This document shows positions 5,332 through 41,923 of a DNA stretch of 41,923 nt, piece by piece. The position numbers were made by a program, and so were the translations under genes. The stretch lies in the IMG/VR virus record IMGVR_UViG_2630968543_000002; one strand, given 5' to 3'. How positions within the stretch are numbered: the stretch's first letter is position 1; each line of letters starts with the position of its first letter. A model generated the notes under the pieces. That model saw only the letters and a list, made by a program, of their open reading frames with translations, did no database searches and was not told the DNA's origin. The DNA is from a virus. Taxonomy: Duplodnaviria; Heunggongvirae; Uroviricota; Caudoviricetes.

Positions 5332-5916
5332 TTATTGTTTATTTTTTTCGTTCTGGTTGATGACAAATTCAATGTAACTTTCGATCTTTGCTTTCTCGGT
5401 TTCGGGTAACAATGCGTAGCGCGAGCGGTCATAGTTGATGGTCGCAGGGTCGTGCGGGTGAATCAGTAATTCATAGCCGTGACGCCCGAATGCGGATGCA
5501 ACATTCTCCAGGGTGGAAATGGAAACGCTGACCTCATTGTTTAACAGGCGGCTGATTGTTACCTGGGCGACGCCGGATGCGCGGTGAAGTTTTCCCTGTG
5601 TTGAAAGGTCGCGGCTTTCGCTCATCCAGCGTTCCAGGTTGTGAGCCGCCAGCTGACCAATGTCGCTTGGGCCGACAGGCTGAAAACCTTCCTGAGAAAG
5701 CGAGCGATCGATATCAAGCCAGTTACGGGGTTTATTGGCGGCAGCTTCAATTTTTCGCGCAACCTGGTCGCCGATAACCTTCTTGCCAAGAGCCCAGCGG
5801 TTTACCAGATTTGCCTGAGTTCCAAGTTTTTCTGCCATCCGCGTCTGAACACCATTGAATTCACGGTCGATCAAGTCGTTGAGATTTTGCCTGCGGACGT
5901 CCTGGATACTTTTCAT
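5332..5916 (-). CDS. Prophage repressor with two tandem HTH domains (CI analogue); no S24 peptidase domain evident
   Basis: 194-aa ORF with two HTH-like segments (QTRMAEKLGTQANLVNRWALGKK and GVAQVTISRLLNNEVSVSISTLENVA); divergent from the Cro-like gene across an operator-rich spacer. Confidence 0.75.
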   Translation of the reverse strand: MKSIQDVRRQNLNDLIDREFNGVQTRMAEKLGTQANLVNRWALGKKVIGDQVARKIEAAANKPRNWLDIDRSLSQEGFQPVGPSDIGQLAAHNLERWMSESRDLSTQGKLHRASGVAQVTISRLLNNEVSVSISTLENVASAFGRHGYELLIHPHDPATINYDRSRYALLPETEKAKIESYIEFVINQNEKNKQ

Positions 5917-5971: not shown

Positions 5972-6034
5972 TTACCCAACAGGTAAATGCACCTCATAGG
6001 TAACTATCCTTGATTTTTGTTACCTTATGGGTGA
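5972..6034. promoter_or_regulatory. Right operator region (OR-like) between repressor and cro: one perfect site (5972..5986) and two degenerate sites (5989..6003 GCACC-N5-GGTAA; 6020..6034 TTACC-N5-GGTGA)
   Basis: Direct reading; the third site lies between a TTGATT -35 (6011..6016) and a GAATAT -10 (6034..6039) of the putative rightward promoter. Confidence 0.65.
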
Positions 6035-6667: not shown

Positions 6668-7483
6668 ATGAGCAGACATGCAACAGATTGGGCCTGGGAG
6701 ACAGATCCAGGTAGCTCGTCATTAAAGCTCATACTGCTCTCGATGGCTGACAGAGCCGATGAATATAACCTCTGCTACCCCAGCATAGAACGCCTCGTTA
6801 AAGACACTTGCCTGAATAAAAAAACCGTGCAGGCCGGGCTTATATCGCTCATGAAGATGGGGCTTATTTCAGATACCGGAGAGAGAAAGGGTGCGACGAA
6901 AAGAGTGCGGGTTTTCTCTCTTAATATAACCAAAAACGGGAACATTAAAGGCAACCGGGAAGGGGGTAATGAACCCGAAAACGGTAATGTTACCGAAAAC
7001 GGGAATATACCCAAAAACGGGATGTTGAATGATCCCAAAAACGGGATGTTGAATGATCCCAAAAACGGGATCCAGAACCAGTCATATAACCAGTCATTTA
7101 ACCAAGAGAGGGAGAGCAGGACAAAAAGCGGGGATTCTGTGCCTCATGACCCCGGCGCAAACAACGCCGTGATGAATAACTTTGTTCCTCCTGGTGGGCC
7201 AGGGCAATTAGGCAAATTTGTCATGCATGAACAATGGCAGCCATCAGATGACTTTCTTCGGAAAAGCTCATTGCAGGGGATCTACCTGGACAGCCTGCCA
7301 ACGGCACAGGAGCTTGCAGAGTTCAGAATTTACTGGATGGCTGAGGGTAAGGCATACCATCAGGCACAGTGGGAGCAGAAGCTGGCAAGGCGGCTGCAGA
7401 TTAGCAGACAGAAGCAATCAACATTACCTGATAACAACGTTCCGCACTGGAACAGCCCTGAAGCGTGGGAGGATTTCTTGTGA
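6668..7483 (+). CDS. Replication initiator (lambda O analogue) with DnaT-like C-terminal domain; the gene contains the putative origin iterons
   Basis: 271-aa ORF; N-terminal winged-helix-like region (LKLILLSMADRADEYNLCYPSIERLVKDT), central NG-rich repeats encoded by the iterons, C-terminal FRIYWMAEGKAYHQAQWEQKLARRLQ; GGAG Shine-Dalgarno. Confidence 0.75.
   Translation: MSRHATDWAWETDPGSSSLKLILLSMADRADEYNLCYPSIERLVKDTCLNKKTVQAGLISLMKMGLISDTGERKGATKRVRVFSLNITKNGNIKGNREGGNEPENGNVTENGNIPKNGMLNDPKNGMLNDPKNGIQNQSYNQSFNQERESRTKSGDSVPHDPGANNAVMNNFVPPGGPGQLGKFVMHEQWQPSDDFLRKSSLQGIYLDSLPTAQELAEFRIYWMAEGKAYHQAQWEQKLARRLQISRQKQSTLPDNNVPHWNSPEAWEDFL
6929..7072. repeat. Origin-like iteron array: six copies of CC(A/G)AAAACGG(G/T)A, the last three as 24-bp tandem repeats, followed by AACCAGTCAT direct repeats
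   Basis: Direct reading (copies at about 6930, 6975, 6993, 7011, 7035, 7059). Confidence 0.7.
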
Positions 7484-8265
7484 ACAACGTTTTTACCGCG
7501 ATACAAAACCGTGACGGAGAAGCCCTTTCTCGCATGTCAGGTTATGAGCATCAGTACGTCAACAATGACAATGTGGTGAACATGTCAGCAGAGAGGCTTG
7601 TTGATGCCCTTTTCAAACAGCTGAAACAACTGTTTCCGGCGGCAGTAGTAACCAACCTGAAGACGCCAGAGCAGGAAGTTGCTGCAAAACAGCAGTGGAT
7701 TGCTGCGTTTGCCGAAGGGGGGATCCGAACCCGTGAACAGGTTTCTGCTGGTATGCGCCACGCCCGCGCCAGTGAATCTCCGTTCTGGCCGTCGCCAGGG
7801 CAATTCATCAAGTGGTGTAAAGACAGCAAGATGGTTCTTGGCGTCACCATTGACGATGTGATGGCGGAGTTTCACCGGTACAGCAAGGAAAAAAGTTTAT
7901 ATCCTGGTGGTCCCGAAAGATTCCCGTGGCGACATCCGGTTATGTACTGGGTCGTATGTGATACCCGCCGTGCAATGTATCAGCGCCAGCTTAGCGAGAT
8001 TGAGGTTGAGAAACACGCGCGCAGGCTGCTCGATGATTGGGCGAAAAAGGTAGCTTCCGGACAGCAGATACCCGATCCGGTGATCAGCATACAGGCAAAG
8101 CCAGAACCCATGAGTACGCCTCCGGACACAGGGAGAGACGTTTACCATCCACCAGGGCGAAGTTTCGGGTGCATGCCTAACGCCGCCACCCTTGGGGGAA
8201 TAACACCGGCGCAGTGGCTGATGGAGGAATACAGGCGGGGAAAGGCGGCAGGATTTATCAAGTAA
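7480..8265 (+). CDS. Lambda P-like replication protein (helicase loader)
   Basis: Matches lambda P as recalled (REQVSAGMRHARASESPFWPSPGQFIKWC versus lambda MEQVNAGMRVARRQNRPFLPSPGQFVAWC); GTG start at 7480 with GGGAGG 7 nt upstream, GTGA overlap with the O-like stop. Confidence 0.85.
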   Translation: MNNVFTAIQNRDGEALSRMSGYEHQYVNNDNVVNMSAERLVDALFKQLKQLFPAAVVTNLKTPEQEVAAKQQWIAAFAEGGIRTREQVSAGMRHARASESPFWPSPGQFIKWCKDSKMVLGVTIDDVMAEFHRYSKEKSLYPGGPERFPWRHPVMYWVVCDTRRAMYQRQLSEIEVEKHARRLLDDWAKKVASGQQIPDPVISIQAKPEPMSTPPDTGRDVYHPPGRSFGCMPNAATLGGITPAQWLMEEYRRGKAAGFIK

Positions 8266-29661: not shown

Positions 29662-32136
29662 ATGAGACAGGAATGTATACAAGCGGTCCAGCAGGCGGCG
29701 CAGCGCACGTTAACGGCGCGAGAAATACAGAACATTGAAGACCGCATTTATCGAAATATGCGCTCCATTGCTCGTGATGACCCGATGTCGTGGAGACAAC
29801 TTTCCGAATCAGAGCGGCTATATCGTGCAGCACAATTGGCATCTGAAGAATTACAGCGAGAAGCGGCATTAAAGAAACGTCGTGTGGCCCTCACTATATC
29901 CGCACGTCAGAGATTGGATAAATTTATCAATAGCTATCAAGGGGCTGATGGGAAACTTGGCGCTCTTAACCGTACTATTGCTTTTAATGCAGACGGTAAA
30001 TCGAATTTCCTCTCTGTTGAGTCCAGAACAAAAGCCACTCGTGATTATGCATTGAGTCAATTGCAAGAGGCATTTGAAGCAGTTGATCCTCGCTTTTTTG
30101 GCCTGTTTGAAGATGAAGCTGGCGTGCGTGACCTGGTATATGAAATGCGAGGGCAAAATACTGGCAATGCTAAAGCAAGAAAAGGTGCTAAGGCGTGGAG
30201 AGAAGTGACAGATCTACTGCGCCGCCGGTTTAATGATGCTGGTGGGGACATTGGCTATCTCGAAAACTGGGGAATCCCTCAACATCATTCTATGGAAAAG
30301 GTTGGGGCGGTATCAAAGGATAAGTGGGTTAGCGATGTTATAGGTAAGCTGGATCGCAAATATTATATCCGAGCCGATGGACAACTGATGAACGATTCCG
30401 AGTTGTCTGCATTTCTTGGAGAGGCTTATAACACGATCGCTACTGGTGGGCTGAATAAGCTTACTGATACCGGAATGCGAATTTCAGGCGCACGTGCTAA
30501 CCGTGGTAATACATCACGACAGATACATTTCAAAGATGCAGATTCCTATCTGCAATATCAGCAACTTTATGGCGATCGCTCTCTATGGGAAATCATGGTC
30601 GGTCACCTGGAAGGTATCAGTAAAGATATTGCACTGGTGGAAACATATGGCCCAAACCCCGATCATGTTTTCCGCTCTCTTCTTGATCAGGTGAAGGCAG
30701 AAACGGCAACAGCTAACCCGAGTAAAACCGGTAAAGTCGAGCGGCTGGCGAACAATACAGAGAATCTGTACAACTTTATTTCCGGAAAGACACAGCCTGT
30801 AGCGAATCCGCACATCGCGCGATGGTCTGACAATATCCGCAACTGGCTGGTTGCCAGCAGACTCGGATCCGCGTTGCTGTCATCGTTCTCTGATCTTGGA
30901 ACCATGTATCTGTCTGCGAAGGTGACCAACCTTCCAATGAACCAGTTATTCCGCAACCAGCTTGAAGCTATGGACCCAACGAACCGTACAGAACTTGCGC
31001 GGGCGCGCCGCGCTGGTCTGGCGATGGAATCTCTACTTGGCAGCGTTAACCGCTGGGCGATGGATAATATGGGGCCGTCTGTGTCTCGTTGGGCTGCAAC
31101 GGCGGTAATGCGTGCCAGTGGGCTTACAGCATGGTCAGATGCGCACAAGCGCGCCTATGGCGTAACCATGATGGGAAGCTTGGGAGAAGTAGTGTCACGG
31201 ACACCAGACCTTCGTAGCCTCGATGATTCTGATTTTCGCATCCTGAAAAGCAAAGGGATTACTGACACAGACTGGAGCGTATGGAAGCTGGCGCAACAGG
31301 AGGACTGGGGGAACGGCAATAATACGATGCTGACACCGGAAAGCATTATGCGTATCCCTGATTCAGCAGTTAAACATCTTGGTGAGCCTGAACGCGTGAA
31401 ATTTGAGGCAATGCGTAAACTGCTCGGTGCCATAACTGAAGAAGTTGATATGGCTGTTATTACACCGGGAGCACGTGAGCAACTGATAACCGGTTCTGGT
31501 ATTCAGCGTGGAACATGGAAAGGTGAATTAACGAGAAGTGTTTTCCTGTTTAAATCGTTCCCTATCTCGGTGGTTATGCGTCACTGGTCACGCGCTATGG
31601 GTATGCCGTCTGCTGGTGGGCGTGCGGCATATATTGCGACGTTTATTGCCAGTACGACCATTCTTGGCGCTTTGTCGCAGCAACTTAACGACCTTGCGTC
31701 TGGTCGTAATCCTCGCGAGATGACAGGAGAAGATGCTGCTAAATTTTGGCTTGGTGCTCTACTGAAAGGTGGTGGTCTTGGCCTTTACGGTGACTTTTTA
31801 TTGTCAGATCACACTAGGTACGGAAGCGGCGCGCTGGCGTCGATGCTTGGCCCGGTAGCTGGTCTGGTTGATGACGTAGTGAAGATTGCTCAGGGCATAC
31901 CGTTAAATGCTGTGGAAGGGAAGAGTGAGCAGACTGGTGGTGATCTGGTTAAGCTGGGGAAAGGTCTGATGCCAGGTGCGAATCTCTGGTACTTGAAGGC
32001 GGCTCTCGATCACATGATCTTTAACCAGATGCAGGAGTATTTTTCACCAGGTTATTTGCGTAAAATGGAGCAACGTTCGAAGAAAGAGTTTAACCAGACA
32101 TACTGGTGGCGACCACAGGATGTCACTCCGCAATAA
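29662..32136 (+). CDS. Internal virion / ejection protein (gp16-like, part 2)
   Basis: 824-aa ORF; last gene of the core-protein operon. Confidence 0.55.
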   Translation: MRQECIQAVQQAAQRTLTAREIQNIEDRIYRNMRSIARDDPMSWRQLSESERLYRAAQLASEELQREAALKKRRVALTISARQRLDKFINSYQGADGKLGALNRTIAFNADGKSNFLSVESRTKATRDYALSQLQEAFEAVDPRFFGLFEDEAGVRDLVYEMRGQNTGNAKARKGAKAWREVTDLLRRRFNDAGGDIGYLENWGIPQHHSMEKVGAVSKDKWVSDVIGKLDRKYYIRADGQLMNDSELSAFLGEAYNTIATGGLNKLTDTGMRISGARANRGNTSRQIHFKDADSYLQYQQLYGDRSLWEIMVGHLEGISKDIALVETYGPNPDHVFRSLLDQVKAETATANPSKTGKVERLANNTENLYNFISGKTQPVANPHIARWSDNIRNWLVASRLGSALLSSFSDLGTMYLSAKVTNLPMNQLFRNQLEAMDPTNRTELARARRAGLAMESLLGSVNRWAMDNMGPSVSRWAATAVMRASGLTAWSDAHKRAYGVTMMGSLGEVVSRTPDLRSLDDSDFRILKSKGITDTDWSVWKLAQQEDWGNGNNTMLTPESIMRIPDSAVKHLGEPERVKFEAMRKLLGAITEEVDMAVITPGAREQLITGSGIQRGTWKGELTRSVFLFKSFPISVVMRHWSRAMGMPSAGGRAAYIATFIASTTILGALSQQLNDLASGRNPREMTGEDAAKFWLGALLKGGGLGLYGDFLLSDHTRYGSGALASMLGPVAGLVDDVVKIAQGIPLNAVEGKSEQTGGDLVKLGKGLMPGANLWYLKAALDHMIFNQMQEYFSPGYLRKMEQRSKKEFNQTYWWRPQDVTPQ

Positions 32137-32145
32137 GGATGAGAA

Positions 32146-32286
32146 ATGATTGCTTTTATTCTTGTTGTGTTTGCGCTTGTTGCACTTGGCGTTATGAACC
32201 GTAAATGTATCATTGACGATGGCGAATTTGCTGTTGCAGTTATTTTGATATTATCTGGTGTAGCAGGGTACATAGGCTTGTCATAA
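32146..32286 (+). CDS. Small hydrophobic peptide (46 aa, two predicted membrane helices); not in the ORF track
   Basis: Hand translation MIAFILVVFALVALGVMNRKCIIDDGEFAVAVILILSGVAGYIGLS; AAGGATGAG 5 nt upstream; followed by palindrome and terminator. Confidence 0.35.
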   Translation: MIAFILVVFALVALGVMNRKCIIDDGEFAVAVILILSGVAGYIGLS

Positions 32287-32293
32287 CGTGAGC

Positions 32294-32305
32294 GTGACAT
32301 GTCAC
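32294..32305. repeat. Perfect 12-bp palindrome GTGACATGTCAC, copy 3 of 3
   Basis: Direct reading. Confidence 0.7.
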
Positions 32306-32330
32306 AGGCCGCTTTCGCGGCCTTGTTTTT
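32306..32330 (+). terminator. Rho-independent terminator ending the core-protein operon
   Basis: AGGCCGC-TTTC-GCGGCCT hairpin followed by TGTTTTT. Confidence 0.7.
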
Positions 32331-32370
32331 AACGAATGCCACCGCCGCCCGGACGGGAATCCGCAGACAC

Positions 32371-32391
32371 AAAAAAGCCCGCGGCGCGGGC
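32371..32391 (-). terminator. Rho-independent terminator for the minus-strand two-gene operon
   Basis: GCCCGC-GGC-GCGGGC hairpin followed on the minus strand by six U (plus A-run 32371..32376). Confidence 0.6.
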
Positions 32392-32831
32392 TATTCTTCT
32401 TCATCATAAAAAAGCGGATTGTCGTTTCCATCTGATGAAAGGAAAGGTATGTGTTCTCTTGAAAATCCAACAACGACAATTTCATTATCATTTTTTGCAT
32501 AATGAATGCATTCATTAGAATGCATTCCGCCGGGGTTGAAATTTAAGTTAATGGTATAATTCTTAAATGTGTTTGGATACCATGTTGGCCCACAATGATA
32601 ATGCCAATAATTCTCTTGCTCATAATTGTCTGAGCCGGGAATTTTATCATGGTTATCATCAACCCACGATGGCTTGTTTTTTCCAACAAGCGCCCTTCCA
32701 TTGGCAACATCTTCTAAAAACCTTTGTATGATTTTTATTTCATCGTCAGTAAGGAAAGGTCCGTCTACAGCGAAAGGGGTGTTGCTTTCCCCATTTAGAA
32801 AACTATTAGATATTCTAATGTTAAACTTCAA
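32391..32831 (-). CDS. Hypothetical protein (146 aa), acidic C-terminus, no recognisable domain; second gene of the accessory operon
   Basis: TTG start with AGGAG 6 nt upstream, 20 nt after the stop of the small upstream gene. Confidence 0.5.
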   Translation of the reverse strand: MKFNIRISNSFLNGESNTPFAVDGPFLTDDEIKIIQRFLEDVANGRALVGKNKPSWVDDNHDKIPGSDNYEQENYWHYHCGPTWYPNTFKNYTINLNFNPGGMHSNECIHYAKNDNEIVVVGFSREHIPFLSSDGNDNPLFYDEEE

Positions 32832-32851
32832 GACAAACTCCTAATGTGCTT

Positions 32852-33019
32852 CTATTTGGAGCGAAATGCCGCCTTGAAGTCGCTGAAAGATGTTCCTGTC
32901 TGGTAAACCATATCCTTGTCGCGCTCTTTGCTTGCGCGGCCAAGCATAACTTTTCCAATGACATCCCAGCATTGCTTGGCTTGTTCATTGTGCTGAGTAC
33001 GATTTTTCAACGCTGTCAT
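32852..33019 (-). CDS. Small hypothetical protein (55 aa); first gene of the accessory operon; not in the ORF track
   Basis: Hand translation MTALKNRTQHNEQAKQCWDVIGKVMLGRASKERDKDMVYQTGTSFSDFKAAFRSK; GGAGG 6 nt upstream. Confidence 0.5.
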   Translation of the reverse strand: MTALKNRTQHNEQAKQCWDVIGKVMLGRASKERDKDMVYQTGTSFSDFKAAFRSK

Positions 33020-33031
33020 ATCGCGCCTCCT

Positions 33032-33075
33032 TTACCTTTAAGGTAATAGTACGCTATTCACCCCCAGTCTGCAAT
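33032..33075 (-). promoter_or_regulatory. Sigma70-like promoter (-35 TTGCAG, 17-bp spacer, -10 TACTAT) with a perfect operator TTACC-TTAAA-GGTAA (33032..33046) overlapping the -10/+1
   Basis: Direct reading of the minus strand. Confidence 0.6.
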
Positions 33076-33119
33076 CTGTACAGAATTATTTAAAGGCACA
33101 TCCCTGTGCCGCCGTTCCG

Positions 33120-33812
33120 TCAGAAAAATCCTGCTTTATCGTTGATGTACTCCGCGTGGGTCTCGATATCACGCAGGCATTTGCTCACACCGACGATGTA
33201 GCAGAACATGGTGGTCAGCTCCGCCGCCGCGCCCGATACGTCGTGCCCGTCTTCCTGTAACTGGTTCAGCAGATTCATCAGCAGTGAGTTCTCCGTCAGG
33301 CCGAGAACACCAGACGGCGAGTGAATCAGACTGCGGTAGCCGGGCTTCAGTGGGGCGCTGTAGGTTTTGTTCTCTATCTTCATTGCCTGCATCACTGCTG
33401 ACGCCGTGGCGTTGGCAACCTGGTCGGCAACCATCTTTATGCGTTCTTCCTGCGGGAGCGAGTTTTTAATGTAGCTTCCGGTGCGGCGGATCTGAGGAAG
33501 AACCTCACCTGTAACCCATTCAAGAAATCTGAATGCTCTCGTTCCCTCTGTCATTGCCTCTTTGCAACGCAGAATAAGGATGTAGAGACCTGATTCTGAA
33601 ACGATGGATAGTTCTTGTATTCCACCAGGGGTCTGTATTGAATGCAGCCCCTTTTTGTTCCAGCCTTTTTTATCAAGTTTTCTCGCTTGTGTAACATCAA
33701 TATTCAAAGCATTGCACACATCTTTGGTGACAAACCAAGGTTCTCCGTCAATCATGAACATACGGATCTGGCAGGATGACTCAAAGGAAAAGATGGAAGG
33801 TTTGGTATTCAT
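33120..33812 (-). CDS. Bro-N domain protein / putative antirepressor (Ant-like)
   Basis: N-terminal Bro-N signature (IFSFESSCQIRMFMIDGEPWFVTKDVCNALNI); AAGGTGA 5 nt upstream of ATG 33812 (ORF opens at 33857 with TTG); C-terminal domain paralogous to gene 34959..35216. Confidence 0.75.
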   Translation of the reverse strand: MNTKPSIFSFESSCQIRMFMIDGEPWFVTKDVCNALNIDVTQARKLDKKGWNKKGLHSIQTPGGIQELSIVSESGLYILILRCKEAMTEGTRAFRFLEWVTGEVLPQIRRTGSYIKNSLPQEERIKMVADQVANATASAVMQAMKIENKTYSAPLKPGYRSLIHSPSGVLGLTENSLLMNLLNQLQEDGHDVSGAAAELTTMFCYIVGVSKCLRDIETHAEYINDKAGFF

Positions 33813-33966
33813 GGCGATCACCTTTGTAGTTAGGTTAATCACCACCGCTGAGACCAATCAGATGGTGGTGAACTGTGCAGAGTTGGTCTTACCGGCTACA
33901 AAGGAACCCGGCGCACCTTTCGGTGCCCCCACACAGCCCACCATAGAATAGGTGCGCTTTACACAT

Positions 33967-34080
33967 AAAAAAACCGCTTATGCGGCATATGTGCCTCTGT
34001 AGTAATCCGGGAGACCAATCCCGGCACTGGATTTTGCCAGTGCCCGATTACTATGGCACAAGAGGAGTGCGATGTAAATT
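33967..34080 (-). ncRNA. Candidate structured leader or small RNA upstream of the Bro-N gene (tentative)
   Basis: Minus-strand promoter (-35 TTGATT, 17-bp spacer, -10 TATCAT) abutting the operator at 34080..34094; two stable hairpins (34007..34024 and 34024..34043) and a short GC stem followed by seven U (33967..33985). Confidence 0.25.
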
Positions 34081-34094
34081 TACCGAAAAGGTAA
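34080..34094. promoter_or_regulatory. Perfect operator palindrome TTACC-GAAAA-GGTAA
   Basis: Direct reading. Confidence 0.55.
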
Positions 34095-34172
34095 TGATAA
34101 GCGCGAAAAAACATTAAAATCAACCGTATTTGGTTGATTGCGTTTAACGCTTGATCACCTGAAAGCAAGATA

Positions 34173-34187
34173 TTACCTTTAAGGTAA
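34173..34187. promoter_or_regulatory. Perfect operator palindrome ATTACC-TTTAA-GGTAAT preceded by AGATAT (-10-like), 21 nt upstream of the 34208 start codon
   Basis: Direct reading; core 15-mer identical to the site at 33032. Confidence 0.55.
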
Positions 34188-34207
34188 TGTTATTGTGAGG
34201 AAAAGCA

Positions 34208-34936
34208 ATGGAAGTTTTCTGGATAGTTGTTGGTGTGGTTGCGGTGATTATTTACGTTATCAACCAGAACAAGACTAAGATCTCTGATCGTACGGTCGTT
34301 AATCAGAACAAAACGATAAAGACCGAAGATGGGGAGATAACGATTAATCGTACACAGGTGATAGAGCACACATCTACTCAGTTTCAAAAAACTGGAGGTA
34401 ACGCTCCTGATATTTCCGTACCTCCTGCTTATGATAGTGCGGTAATCCAGACATATTATAAACAGCAGGAGTTAGCAAAAGAGAGGCAACTGATTCAGCC
34501 AAAGCCGTTTACAGCTGAGCTTCCACCTGGAGTGTCAACGCGTCCGGCATATCATGGAAGATTCCCTGGTGATGACATATCGTCTCAGTCATTTAAAAAA
34601 GCACCTCAGGCAGTATCAGAGCCAGCAAGAATATCTTCTGTATCGCCGCCAAAAGAAGAATCAGCTAACAGAGTTTCAAGCGGTAGCAAGCAGTGCTTGC
34701 GATGCAGAATAAACCTTCCATATGAAAAATTCAGGAAATCGTCAAAAAATCCGGATGGATTGACTAAGTGGTGTGCAAGGTGTCTCGATGGCCCAAAGAA
34801 TACACGTCATATGAAGTGGTGCCCAATTTGTAATGTCCGCAGAAAACGAACCAGCTTTTACCCTAATAATCAAAATGCGGACGGCTTAATGGCATGGTGC
34901 AAAACGTGCTGGGACGAGCACAAAGCGAAACGATAG
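34208..34936 (+). CDS. Membrane-anchored protein with two C-terminal zinc-ribbon-like repeats (unknown function)
   Basis: N-terminal hydrophobic helix (EVFWIVVGVVAVIIYVI); two repeats of C-x2-C-x16-17-DGL-x3-WC-x2-C; GAGG Shine-Dalgarno. Confidence 0.65.
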   Translation: MEVFWIVVGVVAVIIYVINQNKTKISDRTVVNQNKTIKTEDGEITINRTQVIEHTSTQFQKTGGNAPDISVPPAYDSAVIQTYYKQQELAKERQLIQPKPFTAELPPGVSTRPAYHGRFPGDDISSQSFKKAPQAVSEPARISSVSPPKEESANRVSSGSKQCLRCRINLPYEKFRKSSKNPDGLTKWCARCLDGPKNTRHMKWCPICNVRRKRTSFYPNNQNADGLMAWCKTCWDEHKAKR

Positions 34937-34952
34937 GCCGCTCTTGCGGCCT
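34937..34952. terminator. Hairpin between convergent genes (possible bidirectional terminator)
   Basis: GGCCGC-TCTT-GCGGCC followed by TTTAAATTT. Confidence 0.45.
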
Positions 34953-34958
34953 TTAAAT

Positions 34959-35216
34959 TTACCTGGTTTGTTTTCGTAATTGTTCGGCACAATAGTCGAG
35001 ATGTGTTTGCAGATCCTGCATAGACATCTGTGAGCTGGTGACGTAGTTAATCAGTGCAGTCAGTTCGGCAAGTGGGCCATCGACATTAAATCCATCCTTA
35101 TTGAGATCCCGGAGTAATTTCATCAAGTGCGATCCCTCCACCAGTGACCTGACGCCTCCCGGCGTGTGAATCCTTTCGGTAAATCCGTCTTCCAGTGGAT
35201 AGTGATACTGCTGCAT
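34959..35216 (-). CDS. Hypothetical protein (85 aa), paralogue of the C-terminal domain of the Bro-N protein
   Basis: ATG at 35216 with GGAG upstream; TERIHTPGGVRSLVEGSHLMKLLRDLNKDGFNVDGPLAELT aligns with RSLIHSPSGVLGLTENSLLMNLLNQLQEDGHDVSGAAAELT. Confidence 0.55.
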   Translation of the reverse strand: MQQYHYPLEDGFTERIHTPGGVRSLVEGSHLMKLLRDLNKDGFNVDGPLAELTALINYVTSSQMSMQDLQTHLDYCAEQLRKQTR

Positions 35217-35292
35217 CTTATCTTCTCCATGCAATAACTGTATATTTATACAGTAGCAAATAATTTGTTTGCTATCCAGCACGTTTTGCAAA

Positions 35293-35307
35293 TTACCTGA
35301 AAGGTAA
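35293..35307. promoter_or_regulatory. Perfect operator palindrome ATTACC-TGAAA-GGTAAT between divergent gene 34959..35216 and the tailspike; TATGTGGTT motif and a GGTAAT half-site follow at 35339..35358
   Basis: Direct reading. Confidence 0.55.
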
Positions 35308-35411
35308 TATCTATTAGTATTCACAGTATTTCTATCCATATGTGGTTTTTCAGGTAATAGAATAACCAGATATGCGGCGCAACGGGTGCTGCGACTATCT
35401 GGAGATTTAAC

Positions 35412-38400
35412 ATGACGGTCTCAACCGAAGTTGACCACAACGAATACACAGGTAACGGCGTTACGACATCGTTTCCGTATACTTTTCGAATTTTCAGAAA
35501 ATCCGACCTGGTTGTTCAGGTGTCTGACCTGAACGGGAACGTAACAGAATTGGTTCTGGATACCGGTTATACGGTAACTGGGGCGGGCACTTATAGTGGC
35601 GGTTCTGTGGTTCTTCCGTCGCCGCTTGCTACTGGATGGAGAATTACGATAGATCGTGTGCTTGATGTAGTGCAGGAGACAGACCTTCGCAATCAGGGAA
35701 AGTTTTTCCCCGAAGTGCATGAAGATGCCTTTGACTACCTGACGATGCTGATCCAGCAATGTTTTGGATGGTTCAGACGTGCATTGATGAAACCATCTTT
35801 GCTTGCAAAATATTACGATGCAAAGCAAAACAGAATTTCTAACCTTGCAGATCCATCACTTGAACAGGACGCTGTAAATAATCGCTCAATGCGTAATTAT
35901 GTCGATGCTGCAATCGCCGGGGTTGTTGGTGGTTTTGGTTGGTTTATTCAGTATGGTTCTGGGGCAGTATACCGAACGTTCCAGGATAAAATGCGTGATG
36001 CTATTAGCCCCAAAGATTTTGGAGCTGTTGGTGATGGTATAAATGACGATTCTACTGCAATAAGCGCGTGCCTTGAAGCCTCATCTCCAGGTTATAAAAT
36101 TGACGGATTAGGGCTTACTTTTAAAGTATCAACTCTTCCGGATGTCAGCCGATTTAAAAATGCTCGTTTTTTATTTGAGAGAATACCGGGTCAGCCTCTT
36201 TTTTATGCTTCTGAAGATTTTATCCAGGGAGAGTTATTTAAAATTACAGATACACCGTGGTACAACGCCTGGACGCAGGATAAAACGTTTGTATATGACA
36301 ATGTCATCTATGCGCCTTTTATGGCTGGAGACCGCCATGGTGTAAATAACCTCCATGTTGCATGGGTTCGCTCAGGAGATGACGGGAAGACCTGGACAAC
36401 GCCGGAATGGCTTACAGATTTACATGAAAACTATCCCACAGTTAACTATCACTGCATGAGTATGGGGGTTGTCAGAAATCGCCTTTTTGCTGTAATTGAG
36501 ACGCGGACCGTGAGCGGAAATAAACTGCAGGTTGCAGAGTTGTGGGATCGTCCAATGAGTCGCAGCCTTCGCGTTTATGGTGGTATAACGAAAGCAGCAA
36601 ATCAGCAAGTCGCTTATATTCGCATTACTGATCACGGATTATTTGCTGGTGATTTTGTCAACTTCTCAAACTCTGGTGTTACAGGTGTTACCGGGAATAT
36701 GACGGTGACTACTGTTATTGATAAAAATACTTTTACAGTTACGACGCAAAATACTCAGGTTGTGGATCAGAATAACGAGGGTAGATACTGGAGTTTTGGT
36801 ACATCATTTCACTCGTCACCATGGAGAAAAACCAGTCTTGGAACTATTCCTTCTTTTGTTGACGGAAGCACTCCTGTTACTGAGATTCACAGTTTTGCGA
36901 CGATTAGCGATAACAGTTTTGCTGTTGGCTACCATAATGGTGATATTGGTCCACGCGAGCTTGGGATACTCTATTTCTCTGATGCTTTCGGTTCTCCTGG
37001 TAGCTTTGTTCGCAGACGCATACCTGCAGAATATGAGGCGAATGCATCTGAGCCATGTGTAAAATATTATGATGGCATTCTGTATCTGACGACCAGGGGG
37101 ACATTAAGTACTCAACCCGGTAGTTCATTGCACAGAAGCTCTGATTTAGGTGCATCATGGAATTCTCTTCGCTTCCCAAATAATGTTCATCACTCAAACC
37201 TTCCTTTTGCCAAAGTTGGCGATGAGCTGATTATTTTTGGCAGTGAGCGCGCATTTGGTGAGTGGGAAGGAGGAGAACCTGATAACCGTTATGCAGGAAA
37301 TTATCCAAGAACATTTATGACCAGAGTTAACGTCAATGAGTGGAGTCTGGATAATGTAGAGTGGGTTAATGTTACTGATCAGATTTATCAGGGCGGAATA
37401 GTTAACTCTGCGGTTGGTGTTGGTTCAGTTTGTATCAAAGACAACTGGCTGTACTACATTTTCGGTGGGGAAGACTTTCTAAACCCATGGAGCATAGGGG
37501 ATAACAACAGAAAATATCCTTATGTTCACGATGGTCACCCGGCTGATTTGTATTGTTTCAGGGTGAAAATTAAACAGGAAGAATTTGTTTCAAGGGATTT
37601 TGTCTACGGAGCCACTCCTAACAGAACGCTTCCTACTTTTATGTCGACGTCCGGCGTGAGGACGGTTCCTGTACCCGTTGATTTCACAGATGATGTTGCC
37701 GTCCAGTCACTGACTGTCCATGCAGGTACATCAGGACAAGTTCGCGCGGAAGTCAAACTGGAGGGCAATTACGCCATTATTGCGAAGAAAGTACCGTCTG
37801 ATGATGTTACCGCTCAGAGATTAATCGTTAGCGGCGGTGAAACAACGTCTTCAGCAGATGGTGCAATGATAACGTTGCATGGTTCCGGAAGCAGTACTCC
37901 ACGTCGCGCGGTATATAACGCACTCGAACATCTTTTTGAGAACGGAGATGTTAAACCTTATCTTGATAATGTAAATGCTCTTGGTGGTCCGGGAAACAGG
38001 TTCTCGACAGTTTATCTTGGCTCCAATCCTGTGGTTACCAGTGACGGAACATTAAAGACAGAGCCGGTCTCTCCTGACGAAGCATTGCTGGATGCCTGGG
38101 GTGACGTCAGGTATATCGCTTATAAATGGCTGAACGCTGTCGCTATAAAGGGAGAAGAAGGGGCGAGGATACATCATGGTGTAATCGCGCAGCAACTTCG
38201 TGATGTTCTTATTTCTCACGGACTCATGGAAGAAGAAAGCACAACATGCCGCTATGCCTTTCTTTGCTATGACGATTATCCCGCAGTATATGATGACGTC
38301 ATTACTGGCCAAAGGGAAATTCCGCTGACTGATAATGACGGGAGCATCATTGTTGATGAGGATGATAATCCAGTGATGGTAATGGAAGACATCATTGAGC

Positions 38401-38531
38401 GCGTTGAAATAACGCCAGCAGGATCTAGATGGGGGGTCAGACCTGATCTCTTATTCTATATCGAGGCAGCATGGCAGCGCAGAGAAATGGATAAGATAAA
38501 AGAGCGGATTCAGTCTCTGGAAGAACGTTAA
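35412..38531 (+). CDS. Tailspike / receptor-binding protein with predicted beta-helix and C-terminal chaperone-like domain
   Basis: 1039-aa ORF; conserved N-terminal particle-binding region (TGNGVTTSFPYTFRIF), pectate-lyase-like start (ISPKDFGAVGDGINDDSTAI); GGAG Shine-Dalgarno. Confidence 0.8.
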   Translation: MTVSTEVDHNEYTGNGVTTSFPYTFRIFRKSDLVVQVSDLNGNVTELVLDTGYTVTGAGTYSGGSVVLPSPLATGWRITIDRVLDVVQETDLRNQGKFFPEVHEDAFDYLTMLIQQCFGWFRRALMKPSLLAKYYDAKQNRISNLADPSLEQDAVNNRSMRNYVDAAIAGVVGGFGWFIQYGSGAVYRTFQDKMRDAISPKDFGAVGDGINDDSTAISACLEASSPGYKIDGLGLTFKVSTLPDVSRFKNARFLFERIPGQPLFYASEDFIQGELFKITDTPWYNAWTQDKTFVYDNVIYAPFMAGDRHGVNNLHVAWVRSGDDGKTWTTPEWLTDLHENYPTVNYHCMSMGVVRNRLFAVIETRTVSGNKLQVAELWDRPMSRSLRVYGGITKAANQQVAYIRITDHGLFAGDFVNFSNSGVTGVTGNMTVTTVIDKNTFTVTTQNTQVVDQNNEGRYWSFGTSFHSSPWRKTSLGTIPSFVDGSTPVTEIHSFATISDNSFAVGYHNGDIGPRELGILYFSDAFGSPGSFVRRRIPAEYEANASEPCVKYYDGILYLTTRGTLSTQPGSSLHRSSDLGASWNSLRFPNNVHHSNLPFAKVGDELIIFGSERAFGEWEGGEPDNRYAGNYPRTFMTRVNVNEWSLDNVEWVNVTDQIYQGGIVNSAVGVGSVCIKDNWLYYIFGGEDFLNPWSIGDNNRKYPYVHDGHPADLYCFRVKIKQEEFVSRDFVYGATPNRTLPTFMSTSGVRTVPVPVDFTDDVAVQSLTVHAGTSGQVRAEVKLEGNYAIIAKKVPSDDVTAQRLIVSGGETTSSADGAMITLHGSGSSTPRRAVYNALEHLFENGDVKPYLDNVNALGGPGNRFSTVYLGSNPVVTSDGTLKTEPVSPDEALLDAWGDVRYIAYKWLNAVAIKGEEGARIHHGVIAQQLRDVLISHGLMEEESTTCRYAFLCYDDYPAVYDDVITGQREIPLTDNDGSIIVDEDDNPVMVMEDIIERVEITPAGSRWGVRPDLLFYIEAAWQRREMDKIKERIQSLEER

Positions 38532-40852: not shown

Positions 40853-41392
40853 TTAATTAAACCAGCTGTCCGATTTGTTCTCTTCTGCTTTGCCCACGCT
40901 TTTCATCAGATCGCGACCGCCTTCAGTCATATTTCTGTTGGCGTCAGCTTCAGATTGCACCACATCGGTTTGCGCAGCTTTGTGCTTCAGTTCCTGATCG
41001 ATAAATTCGTTTTCTCGCTTAACGCGGGCTTCTTCTTTCGCCAGCGCCAGTTTTTGTTTCTGAATCTCTAAGCTGCGTAGCTCATCTTCATAACTTTGAT
41101 CGCGTTTTTTGTCCGCATAGGCTTCGGCGTCCAGTTTATCCTGACGAGCTTTCTTATTTGCCGCTGCCGTTGCCGCTCTTTTGTTAGCGGCGGCCTGGGC
41201 ATTTGCGCGACGTTGCTTCTCTTGCTGGATTTCCCTGTTGCGCTCCGCGACCCATTCGTCATGCTGCCTTTGCTCTTCATTTTTACCTTGCTGTTCCGCT
41301 TCTGCGACAGCAGAGAGTTGATCCTGCAATGATGAGGCGATAGCCGGATAGCTTAAGGAGGCTAAGATGGCGCAAAGAAAAACTTTCTTCAT
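40853..41392 (-). CDS. Secreted coiled-coil protein of unknown function (probable host flank)
   Basis: 179-aa ORF; N-terminal signal peptide (MKKVFLCAILASLSYPAIA); Lys/Ala/Gln/Glu-rich; AAGGAGG Shine-Dalgarno. Confidence 0.6.
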   Translation of the reverse strand: MKKVFLCAILASLSYPAIASSLQDQLSAVAEAEQQGKNEEQRQHDEWVAERNREIQQEKQRRANAQAAANKRAATAAANKKARQDKLDAEAYADKKRDQSYEDELRSLEIQKQKLALAKEEARVKRENEFIDQELKHKAAQTDVVQSEADANRNMTEGGRDLMKSVGKAEENKSDSWFN

Positions 41393-41407
41393 GACTCCTC
41401 CTGATTA

Positions 41408-41923
41408 TTAGCTCTTTTCAGGACATTTGGTATTTGGCTGAATACGCGTTTCGTTATACGTCGTGGTAATAACAACGGCTAAACCTGTCGTAAACTGGCA
41501 CTCTTTACCCACCTGGGTAGAGGTATACACTTTGGTGCCTTCCTTATAGGTTAAAGAAACACCTTCCACTAAGGTTTTATCATTCACCATAGAACCCGCT
41601 GCCGCGCCTACAGCTCCGCCGCCAACTGCACCTGCCGTCGTTCCGGAATTGCTGCCAGACCCGACGTTGTGGCCGATAACACCGCCAGCGACTGCGCCAA
41701 TAAGCGCGCCGAAGGCTTGTGCGTTCCGTTTATTTTGGGAGTTGTCTACGGCAACTTTTGCGGGAAGAATGGAAATAATATTAACGGTTTTAGTTTCTTG
41801 TTTGGTATTCAGTTGATCGGTTTGATAAACATCGGCAGCATGATCGTCAGCATTTGACTGGCATCCTGCCAGAGTGAATGACGCTAACATTGCCACAGGC
41901 AGAAGACATTTTTTAAATTTCAT
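41408..41923 (-). CDS. Glycine-zipper outer-membrane lipoprotein (SlyB/Pcp-like; probable host flank); start codon at the window edge
   Basis: Lipobox LAGC in MKFKKCLLPVAMLASFTLAGC; Gly/Ala-rich glycine-zipper segment. Confidence 0.65.
   Translation of the reverse strand: MKFKKCLLPVAMLASFTLAGCQSNADDHAADVYQTDQLNTKQETKTVNIISILPAKVAVDNSQNKRNAQAFGALIGAVAGGVIGHNVGSGSNSGTTAGAVGGGAVGAAAGSMVNDKTLVEGVSLTYKEGTKVYTSTQVGKECQFTTGLAVVITTTYNETRIQPNTKCPEKS

Follow-up and report, generated by a model that had tools for sequence, protein, structure and literature searches.

A probable lysis-lysogeny control region with two inserted cargo genes at the core-protein/tailspike junction of a Uetakevirus prophage

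The immI region of phage P22 (mnt-arc-ant, with the sar RNA) is a secondary immunity region that encodes an antirepressor, and it maps between the ejection/internal protein genes and the tailspike. In SPC32H, a member of the same SPN1S/epsilon15 group as the phage analysed here, a Rep/Ant switch was reportedly described by Kim & Ryu (2013, J Virol) and Kim et al. (2016, PNAS), with PDB entries 5D50 and 5D4Z. In that system, LexA-controlled Ant inhibits the repressor (PMC7380047); the DNA-binding form of Rep is a tetramer, which is disrupted when an Ant tetramer engages two Rep dimers (PMC9638917). Antirepressor operons controlled by antisense RNA are represented by P1, in which the c4-icd-ant operon is repressed by C1 and C4 RNA (PMC8198154), and by the isrK-orf45-anrP locus of Gifsy-1 (PMC4825925).

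The window, i.e. the whole stretch of 41,923 nucleotides that was analysed, is a Uetakevirus (epsilon15/phiV10-like) E. coli prophage. The stretch between its core-protein and tailspike genes is mainly a prophage lysis-lysogeny control region into which two swappable cargo genes have been inserted, and most of it is therefore already understood. The control components comprise two antirepressors (one of them a candidate), two regulatory RNAs, and repressor and LexA binding sites, and the region as a whole is quite probably a secondary immunity and induction-control locus with two mobile cargo units. All the units that the initial annotation had assigned to an accessory island were recovered on the ORF map, at or near where it had put them, and each has a full-length PHROG family (E 5.5e-33 or better). 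The GC content was 0.40-0.46 in most 500-nt bins of the region, versus about 0.50 in the structural genes. The features, including the repressor gene outside the island, are as follows.

5198 and 5260: OL sites of rep
5332..5916, minus strand: predicted phage repressor Rep (PDB 5D50_A 'Repressor', E 4e-42)
5972, 5990 (degenerate) and 6020: OR sites of rep
32136: end of the last core-protein gene
32146..32286, plus strand: 46-aa two-TM protein, homologue of phiV10 gp21 / SPN1S_0020 (phrog_7892, 5.5e-33)
32306..32323, plus strand: intrinsic terminator closing the late (core-protein) operon, also an annotated terminator in phiV10
32376..32392, minus strand: terminator of the two-gene cassette, a GC-rich hairpin followed by a T-run
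32391..32831, minus strand: 146-aa protein of RelE/ParE-like fold, a candidate toxin (phrog_5954), TTG start, AGGAG six bases upstream
32852..33019, minus strand: 55-aa partner and candidate antitoxin (phrog_8607), encoded immediately 5' of the 146-aa gene
33032..33046: Rep-type operator TTACCTTTAAGGTAA at the promoter of the cassette (TTGCAG-17-TACTAT), the promoter -10 overlapping it
33120..33812, minus strand: Bro-N protein with an Ant-like C-terminal domain (Pfam Bro-N, 1.2e-13)
33861..33948, minus strand: C4 antisense RNA (RF01695; 78.6 bits versus a gathering score of 45)
33967..34043, minus strand: isrK-family sRNA (RF01394; 74.7 bits versus a gathering score of 50)
33973-33986: isrK terminator
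34080..34094: Rep-type operator at the isrK-C4-Bro-N promoter, overlapping the -10 of TTGATT-18-TATCAT and abutting the -35 of a second promoter
34173..34187: Rep-type operator directly 5' of the zinc-ribbon gene ribosome-binding site
34208..34936, plus strand: 242-aa membrane-anchored tandem zinc-ribbon protein (phrog_6762, 6.6e-148)
34935..34952, plus strand: hairpin terminator where the zinc-ribbon and ant genes converge
34959..35216, minus strand: ant, 85-aa SPC32H-type antirepressor (phiV10 gp24, similar to epsilon15 gp19)
35236..35255: LexA box AACTGTATATTTATACAGTA (18/20 to consensus) that overlaps the predicted promoter of ant (TGGATA-17-TACTGT)
35293..35307: Rep-type operator between ant and the tailspike gene, 55 nt away from the LexA box
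35412: start of the tailspike gene

The 46-aa membrane protein gene, counted as a unit of the island by the initial annotation, belongs instead to the late structural operon. It lies directly 3' of the core-protein gene as the final gene of that operon, with neither an operator site nor a promoter of its own; its DNA is 86.7% conserved in the Salmonella phages SPN1S and SPC32H, and its phiV10 counterpart is annotated 'putative integral membrane protein'. Being last in the late operon and largely kept across the genus, it is not cargo. Each unit had also been credited with its own signals, and this was borne out in part: operators and terminator-like hairpins are present, the latter enriched in the region (13 versus 3.6 expected), but both site and promoter are missing from the 46-aa gene, and only a weak hairpin follows the Bro-N gene.

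The repressor sequence points to a homologue of SPC32H Rep with two HTH domains; Pfam detected only HTH domains and no Peptidase_S24. A repeated palindrome, TTACC-N5-GGTAA, lies on both sides of rep (at OL and OR) and ahead of most operons; on the ORF map all such sites are intergenic. In the whole window, 14 sites with at most one mismatch were found versus 0.73 expected, an about 19-fold excess that none of 100 shuffles reached. It is also the top palindrome in Tyrion and SPN1S, at the same relative places, and several promoters have a -10 hexamer that overlaps the operator. The ATTACC-N5-GGTAAT promoter sites previously ascribed to the island include four exact TTACC-N5-GGTAA matches there (33032, 34080, 34173 and 35293), but the motif is genome-wide and not island-specific. 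Operators that are many and scattered over the genome are likewise a feature of the P1 repressor C1. The site at 35293, upstream of the predicted ant -35, may serve ant, the tailspike gene or looping.

The small ORF upstream of the tailspike had been described as a paralogue of the Bro-N C-terminal domain, and it is indeed 41% identical to the C-terminus of the Bro-N protein; it proved to be an SPC32H-type Ant (phrog_450), matching PDB 5D50_E 'Anti-repressor protein' over residues 2-84 (HMMER, E 2e-46). A mechanical 126-aa ORF for this gene was rejected as a spurious extension, the real length being 85 aa. The near-consensus LexA box, some 20 nt 5' of ant, is the sole such site in the window versus 0.01 expected, and is kept in seven relatives (TL-2011b, phiV10, phiv142-3, E15, Tyrion, SPN1S and a Pectobacterium prophage) that span Escherichia, Salmonella, Enterobacter and Pectobacterium. 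The locus shares with SPC32H the Ant and predicted Rep homologues, the latter peptidase-less and with two HTH domains, the LexA box at the ant promoter, and the position of ant, next to the tailspike gene on its upstream side and pointing away from it. Unlike SPC32H, it has a second, larger protein in which the Ant domain is fused to Bro-N and placed under RNA-level control, and it has two cargo units, whereas at this junction the closely related SPN1S, standing in for SPC32H, carries just ant and the 46-aa gene. With P22 immI it shares the map position and the character of a secondary immunity region encoding an antirepressor, and its relative TL-2011b carries Arc, Ant and the sar RNA in this same junction. 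The window itself, however, has no Arc/Mnt homologue, sar RNA or P22-type Ant, control being assigned to LexA, Rep and C4/isrK.

The Bro-N gene most likely starts at ATG 33812, giving 230 aa, and homologues are equally long; the TTG-extended ORF from 33857 was set aside as spurious. Residues 149-225 of the protein match SPC32H Ant (5D50_E, E 2.6e-13), and by virtue of this Ant-like C-terminal domain it would act as a second, RNA-controlled antirepressor. It is 80% identical to ZX5 ORF4, for which the support comes only from overexpression, under which prophage titres fell from 10^9 to 10^6 and lysogeny was lowered (PMC9782041). In its leader, the C4 loop CCUUUGUAG is the exact 9-nt complement of CUACAAAGG at 33821-33829, overlapping the Bro-N Shine-Dalgarno, and AGACCAA is complementary to UUGGUCU at both 33857 and 34018; the a-type box is duplicated. 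The isrK RNA carries upstream a1/b1-type decoy sites for C4, and a promoter-like TTTACA-17-CATAGT stops at 34050, seven bases before its 5' end. Six relatives have both C4 and isrK ahead of the Bro-N gene.

This arrangement resembles P1/P7 immI (c4-icd-ant1/2) and Gifsy-1 isrK-orf45-anrP in having a predicted main-repressor operator at the operon promoter, a C4-family RNA encoded in the leader, target boxes present twice, upstream within isrK and again at the downstream gene's ribosome-binding site, and an antirepressor-type protein from that gene. It differs in that the interval between C4 and the Bro-N gene yielded no established counterpart of icd or orf45, the c4-a1b1 Rfam motif (34004-34056) scores under its gathering score (39.9 versus 46.7 bits), no AntQ-type target is present, and the antirepressor is a Bro-N::Ant (SPC32H-type) fusion rather than P1 Ant1/2. 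The initial annotation could name no system for any product, yet the small paralogue, the Bro-N gene with its leader, and the repeated site belong to characterised lysis-lysogeny control systems, namely SPC32H Rep/Ant with LexA control and the P1 immI / Gifsy-1 isrK-type antisense-RNA-controlled antirepressor operon.

From these likenesses we infer the following order of events. In the lysogen, the two-HTH, peptidase-less Rep would bind TTACC-N5-GGTAA at OL, at OR and at the majority of the remaining promoters, three or four island operators among them, while host LexA would keep the small ant gene off. DNA damage would remove LexA, and the Ant then made would, by homology to SPC32H, bind Rep and break up its DNA-binding tetramer. 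Loss of Rep would open the isrK-C4-Bro-N operon, which could remain gated post-transcriptionally by pairing of C4 RNA with the Bro-N ribosome-binding site, the isrK RNA offering decoy sites for C4; the Bro-N protein as a second antirepressor would lock in the switch. The same derepression would turn on both cargo units.

One of these is the 55-aa/146-aa pair, a candidate toxin-antitoxin module on account of the RelE/ParE-like fold of the larger protein. Like type II RelE/ParE modules (YafNO, RelBE, YoeB-YefM, HigBA), it has a small upstream and a toxin-sized downstream gene in one operon and moves as a pair: the 55-aa gene is kept as upstream neighbour in Pectobacterium and Serratia prophages, and Erwinia persicina has a stand-alone chromosomal copy between accA and an IF-2B-family gene. 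In TL-2011b, a non-homologous Pfam YafO toxin pair occupies the same spot. Unlike those modules, the 146-aa protein lies by sequence outside all Pfam and NCBIfam families, those of toxins included, and has roughly 45 extra residues at the N-terminus as well as conserved GKNKPSW and WHYHCG motifs; its partner has no recognisable antitoxin fold or DNA-binding family; and the promoter has the phage repressor's operator and no evident antitoxin autoregulation site. This operator is found at the equivalent place in four diverged prophages and is absent from the chromosomal Erwinia copy, so the Rep wiring is specific to phage copies.

The second cargo unit encodes an N-terminal TM helix, a short conserved segment, a disordered Pro-rich linker and two CxxC...WCxxC zinc ribbons (AlphaFold2 pLDDT about 90 for the ribbons and <55 for the linker), and the protein probably faces the cytoplasm from its membrane anchor. 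It has 33 homologues, of which the named ones are all from Enterobacterales and labelled 'hypothetical'. The gene occurs at the same junction in a Providencia prophage and, in Buttiauxella, within a serine-recombinase element; a search for its sigma-70 promoter gave no convincing candidate.

The operators at both cargo units suggest that these are silent in the lysogen. What the units would do once derepressed is more tentative, and a lytic-cycle role is possible, if doubtful: the RelE-fold protein would halt or reshape host translation, with its partner moderating the effect, and the inner membrane would be the site of action of the zinc-ribbon protein, e.g. blocking superinfecting DNA or countering host defence during replication. 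The phage-specific operators fit such a role, as do the HMM-level matches of the ribbons to the nucleic-acid-binding ribbons of phage EndoVII/HNH and Lar-like proteins; however, this ribbon similarity is generic, Foldseek against PDB returned no match, and the units are dispensable, being absent from most relatives.

The defence cargo of prophages often includes toxin-antitoxin modules and membrane proteins, and the junction had been likened to a phage cargo or defence hotspot. The cassette, the zinc-ribbon protein and perhaps the Bro-N protein would then be expressed in the lysogen and exclude other phages, for example by abortive infection via the RelE-like toxin or superinfection exclusion at the membrane. 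Fast turnover and the mobility of both units accord with this, as does their replacement in relatives by a YafO-type toxin and other small genes, but we consider it unlikely. PADLOC matched no product of the region, three of the six units are switch components rather than cargo, and the unit promoters share the rep-flanking operator, retained at the cassette in diverged prophages; since a classical prophage defence gene would be expressed in the lysogen, this predicted silence argues against a defence island. That small ORFs and repeated sites are chance features of non-coding spacer is refuted for practical purposes, despite the two spurious mechanical ORFs, by the site enrichment, the PHROG families, the Ant match to 5D50_E, RNA matches above Rfam gathering scores and cargo homologues in other genera.

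The hotspot character assumed by the initial annotation was supported by the comparison of related prophages: phiV10, TL-2011b, phiv142-3, SPN1S and Tyrion differ in content between the same flanking genes, and the junction is a hot spot of gene turnover. Among 5,426 complete E. coli genomes, the ant segment was present in 530, the zinc-ribbon gene in 128 and the two-gene cassette in 76, and 24 carried at least 80% of the island.

According to megablast, the window belongs to the epsilon15/phiV10 group (genus Uetakevirus, temperate podophages), and PAS61, phiv142-3, ZX5 and TL-2011b match ~72–80% of its first 25 kb at an identity of ~97%. The gene ending at 32136 corresponds to phiV10 gp20, a 'virion structural protein'. 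At 35412 begins a gene whose product combines a K1 endosialidase (Pfam End_beta_propel, 2.5e-233) with an N-terminus like those of other Uetakevirus tailspikes, which we take to be the epsilon15-type adaptor. Because these two genes flank the junction, the frame adopted in the initial annotation, a stretch set between core-protein genes and a tailspike, is correct. The tailspike itself (35412–38531) is built of End_N_terminal, beta-propeller, beta-barrel and tail-spike domains followed by an S74 chaperone, from which the window would be a K1-capsule-specific Uetakevirus prophage. All of the units previously listed for the island were recovered in the ORF map, and the genes are as follows:

32146–32286, plus strand: 46-aa protein with two transmembrane helices
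32391–32831, minus strand: 146-aa RelE/ParE-like candidate toxin
32852–33019, minus strand: 55-aa partner of the candidate toxin
33120–33812, minus strand: Bro-N gene
34208–34936, plus strand: zinc-ribbon gene
34959–35216, minus strand: ant

Two gene models had to be adjusted. The Bro-N gene is present with a different boundary, its likeliest start being ATG 33812, which gives 230 aa (compare 231-aa homologues), and the small ORF next to the zinc-ribbon gene is present with a different length, 85 aa, the length of its solved homologue. This small ORF, here named ant, had been called a paralogue of the Bro-N C-terminal domain, and indeed its product aligns with the ~75 C-terminal residues of Bro-N at 41% identity (E 3e-19). 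Terminator-like hairpins are over-represented in the region (13 versus 3.6 expected).

The ant product matched the 'Anti-repressor protein' of PDB 5D50 (chain E; E 2e-46, residues 2–84 of 85), and the phage repressor Rep (5332–5916, minus strand) matched the 'Repressor' of the same entry (chain A; E 4e-42, residues 1–190). Both chains come from Salmonella phage SPC32H, as its Ant and its Rep, and this phage is also among the DNA matches of the window. Pfam assigned only HTH_3, HTH_26 and YdaS-like domains to Rep and detected no S24 autocleavage peptidase in it. A LexA box (AACTGTATATTTATACAGTA, 35236–35255; 18/20 to the consensus) is located ~20 nt upstream of ant, overlapping the predicted ant promoter, and is unique in the window (0.01 expected). 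It is kept upstream of ant in seven relatives. Both the box and an operator 55 nt further on are kept in phiv142-3, E15, Tyrion and SPN1S, while TL-2011b and phiV10 keep the box with the operator one base off; a Pectobacterium prophage likewise has a LexA box ahead of its ant-like gene. An Ant homologue, a Rep homologue without S24 and a LexA box at the predicted ant promoter are thus all shared with SPC32H, for which LexA cleavage is outlined as leading to Ant production and repressor inhibition (PMC7380047), and Rep is summarized as a DNA-binding tetramer that tetrameric Ant dismantles (PMC9638917). By analogy with SPC32H, we infer that Ant would bind Rep and free the DNA, and that the prophage would be SOS-inducible through Ant. 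A point mutation in the LexA box is reported to make induction constitutive in SPC32N. In SPN1S the junction contains only the 46-aa gene and ant, so that ant is the constant occupant of the junction.

The site ATTACC-N5-GGTAAT had been presented as an island feature carried by each unit. Four copies of TTACC-N5-GGTAA do lie in the island (33032, 34080, 34173 and 35293), none of them belonging to the 46-aa gene, with which the late operon ends; however, the window holds 14 sites at ≤1 mismatch (0.73 expected), and the ten outside the island are distributed as follows:

5198 and 5260: downstream of the Rep gene (OL)
5972 and 6020, with a degenerate copy at 5990: between the Rep gene and the divergent cro-like gene (OR)
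6357, and 8303 and 8365: ahead of other transcription units
12845 and 12863: ahead of the small terminase gene
16053: ahead of the portal operon

Besides OL and OR, the motif thus marks most other operon starts (small terminase gene, portal operon and a DUF1064 gene). At several predicted promoters the −10 hexamer (TATCAT, TACTAT or TTTAAT) runs directly into the TACC of the site. In Tyrion and SPN1S the same motif is the most over-represented 5-N-5 palindrome and occupies equivalent relative places; operator–repressor covariation was dropped as an argument, since the shared motif means conservation only. We infer that TTACC-N5-GGTAA is the putative binding site of the main repressor, Rep, and hence an operator of the phage rather than of the island. 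A comparable arrangement of many C1 operators is known in P1 (PMC8198154), and the operator set of the window looks like a P1-C1-like multi-operator regulon.

The Bro-N protein resembles the solved Ant in its C-terminal domain (E 2.6e-13), and is 80% identical overall to ZX5 ORF4 and near-identical to it across the C-terminal 120 residues. Overexpression of ZX5 ORF4 decreased prophage titres ~1000-fold and lowered repressor transcripts (PMC9782041). The Ant-like C-terminus, together with the likeness to ZX5 ORF4 and the effect of the latter, leads us to read the Bro-N protein as a second antirepressor. Two Rfam-supported RNAs lie in its leader, downstream of the operator-bearing promoter and ahead of the Bro-N start codon; they are listed here with the neighbouring control elements:

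33861–33948, minus strand: C4 antisense RNA (RF01695), full length, 78.6 bits against a gathering score of 45
33967–34043, minus strand: isrK (RF01394), 74.7 bits against a gathering score of 50
33973–33986: hairpin, the isrK terminator
34080–34094: putative Rep operator overlapping the predicted −10 of the isrK–C4–Bro-N promoter, with the operator sequence also seen at OL and OR

The C4 loop CCUUUGUAG is exactly complementary to CUACAAAGG (33821–33829), which overlaps the Shine-Dalgarno of Bro-N ATG 33812, and inspection by eye showed that isrK holds CUACAGAGG, a near-copy of CUACAAAGG. AGACCAA in C4 is complementary to UUGGUCU, a box with one copy in isrK and another immediately past C4 (33857). 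The c4-a1b1 Rfam model scored 39.9 bits, under its gathering score of 46.7. Whole-sequence C4–target duplex energies were no better than those of shuffled controls, and for the C4 pairing we therefore rely on the Rfam matches and on loop complementarity, which is exact. The arrangement of isrK and C4 ahead of the Bro-N gene is also found in TL-2011b, phiV10, phiv142-3, Tyrion and the Pectobacterium and Serratia prophages. Its a1b1/a2b2 logic is shared with the immI operon of P1/P7, in which C1 and C4 RNA jointly hold ant off (PMC8198154), and its layout recalls the isrK-orf45-anrP locus of Gifsy-1, in which the short form of IsrK switches on translation of the mRNA made by read-through (PMC4825925). 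No icd/orf45-type coupling ORF was found before the Bro-N gene; the ORFs seen there by eye are of ~25–28 codons, overlap C4 and have no family support. In the mechanism that we propose, the Bro-N antirepressor would be released when Rep is lost, with C4 and isrK as its gate, and would provide positive feedback once the LexA-controlled Ant had fired, in that presumed order of events. Between the two back-to-back operators of the island, a hairpin followed by a T-run (34118–34139, minus strand) has a stem that includes the −35 of the upstream promoter of the isrK operon, and may insulate this promoter against antisense read-through from ant. In the Serratia prophage (positions 7497–7584 of its locus), an sRNA-Xcc1 match (RF02221, 77.9 bits) instead of isrK/C4 precedes a second Bro-N gene, which suggests that the RNA leaders of Bro-N antirepressor genes are interchangeable.

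The earlier impression that no island product could be named is not supported, because the backbone is a composite of two characterized systems, SPC32H Rep/Ant under LexA control and an RNA-gated antirepressor operon of the P1 immI/isrK type. The backbone lies where P22 has immI, and none of the P22 immI parts (Arc/Mnt, P22-type Ant and sar RNA) was found in the window. At the same junction, TL-2011b encodes a P22-type Arc-like repressor and Ant (1280–2464 of its locus) with sar RNA (RF00262, 1451–1518, 44.8 bits), in addition to its isrK–C4–Bro-N unit and a YafO-type pair. The junction was rightly regarded as a hot spot of gene turnover, but a defence island of unnameable parts does not describe it best. 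The defence-system HMMs of PADLOC-DB v2 gave zero matches to the six island proteins at E up to 0.1. Genome counts were 530 for ant, 128 for the zinc-ribbon gene and 76 for the two-gene cassette of candidate toxin and partner; the latter two are minority passengers. An extra 53-aa gene, annotated as 'putative transmembrane anchored protein' in TL-2011b, lies between the 46-aa gene and the cassette position in E. coli MS20653 (1830–1991), TL-2011b (2539–2700) and locus L003 (3162–3323); the window lacks it, making it another small indel at the junction.

The cassette was found as a pair in the window and loci L003, L009, L011, L013 and L014, and its copy in Erwinia persicina is a lone chromosomal insertion. 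The 55-aa partner accompanies the 146-aa gene at the same junction in the Pectobacterium and Serratia prophages, and its identity is 35–62% in three aligned non-E. coli copies and 100% in L003. The 146-aa family has 115 representatives among 1.84 billion proteins, with H77, H79 and H127 invariant, and the candidate toxin has a RelE-like alpha/beta fold. The 146-aa protein had no Pfam, NCBIfam or PADLOC match, 68 relatives likewise had no Pfam or NCBIfam match, Foldseek of its model against BFVD returned nothing significant, and PDB sequence-profile searches with the 146-aa and 55-aa families returned nothing meaningful. TL-2011b carries at this spot an unrelated pair, the larger gene of which is a Pfam YafO toxin. 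The annotation of TL-2011b, and an HxH motif noticed on inspection, had suggested that the 146-aa protein belongs to the YafO family (YafO_toxin, PF13957). This was rejected, as BLASTP, Pfam on 69 family members and hhalign against the TL-2011b YafO (probability 0.3%) were all negative, and only a fold-level RelE/ParE claim is retained. The bicistronic layout of small partner and toxin, conserved as a pair, is shared with type II toxin-antitoxin systems of the RelE/ParE superfamily, making the cassette a candidate type II module of a new sequence family.

The zinc-ribbon protein (242 aa) comprises an N-terminal transmembrane helix, a short conserved segment and a disordered linker, followed by two zinc ribbons predicted with confidence. 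The resemblance of these to the N-terminal ribbons of phage EndoVII/HNH and Lar-like proteins is at motif level only. Foldseek against PDB returned nothing, the PDB profile search only PacI (E 0.29), and Pfam only Stc1, below cut-off. Its gene has an operator at the promoter, as does the cassette, where the operator is kept in diverged prophages and absent from the chromosomal Erwinia copy. It is conceivable, and in our judgement rather unlikely, that the master repressor directly controls both the unclassified RelE-fold toxin/partner pair and the membrane zinc-ribbon protein as induction-triggered effectors rather than lysogen-expressed defences. If Rep did control this cargo, the effectors could act in host shut-off, superinfection exclusion or counter-defence, and a toxin-antitoxin-like module would have been rewired from self-regulation to the lysis–lysogeny switch.

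The junction occurs in roughly a tenth of complete E. coli genomes. RefSeq labels ant and all other island genes except the BRO-N protein as 'hypothetical protein'. The present analysis gives names to ant and Rep, to the operators and LexA box, and to both RNAs. These prophages, among them some specific for the K1 capsule and relatives from strains that produce Shiga toxin (hosts O157:H7 and O103:H25), are predicted to be induced via a LexA-gated antirepressor, possibly backed by the second, RNA-gated one. Defence mining should allow for the chance that a 'cargo hot spot' beside a tailspike gene is a regulatory locus. Three items are possibly new: the occurrence of a free Ant together with a Bro-N::Ant fusion, the wide reach of the operator network, and a RelE-fold family, presumably wired to the phage repressor, for which no curated model exists; some of these items may already be published, and a Nat Commun 2025 paper on accessory genes contained nothing about this junction.

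Further features were observed outside the island genes. GGTAATAGAAT (35350–35375), which combines a half operator and a good −10 (TAGAAT) with no good −35, is kept in seven phages (the window and L001–L006), ~45–60 nt ahead of the ATG of the tailspike gene, for which it may serve as a promoter that depends on an activator. ORF 6668–7483 contains, at 6965–7104, three tandem-repeat arrays next to one another (periods 18, 24 and 12), which look like replication-origin iterons. After the lysis genes, 40853–41923 encodes proteins with lipoprotein-like signal sequences and is probably host DNA, which would place the prophage end near 40.7 kb.
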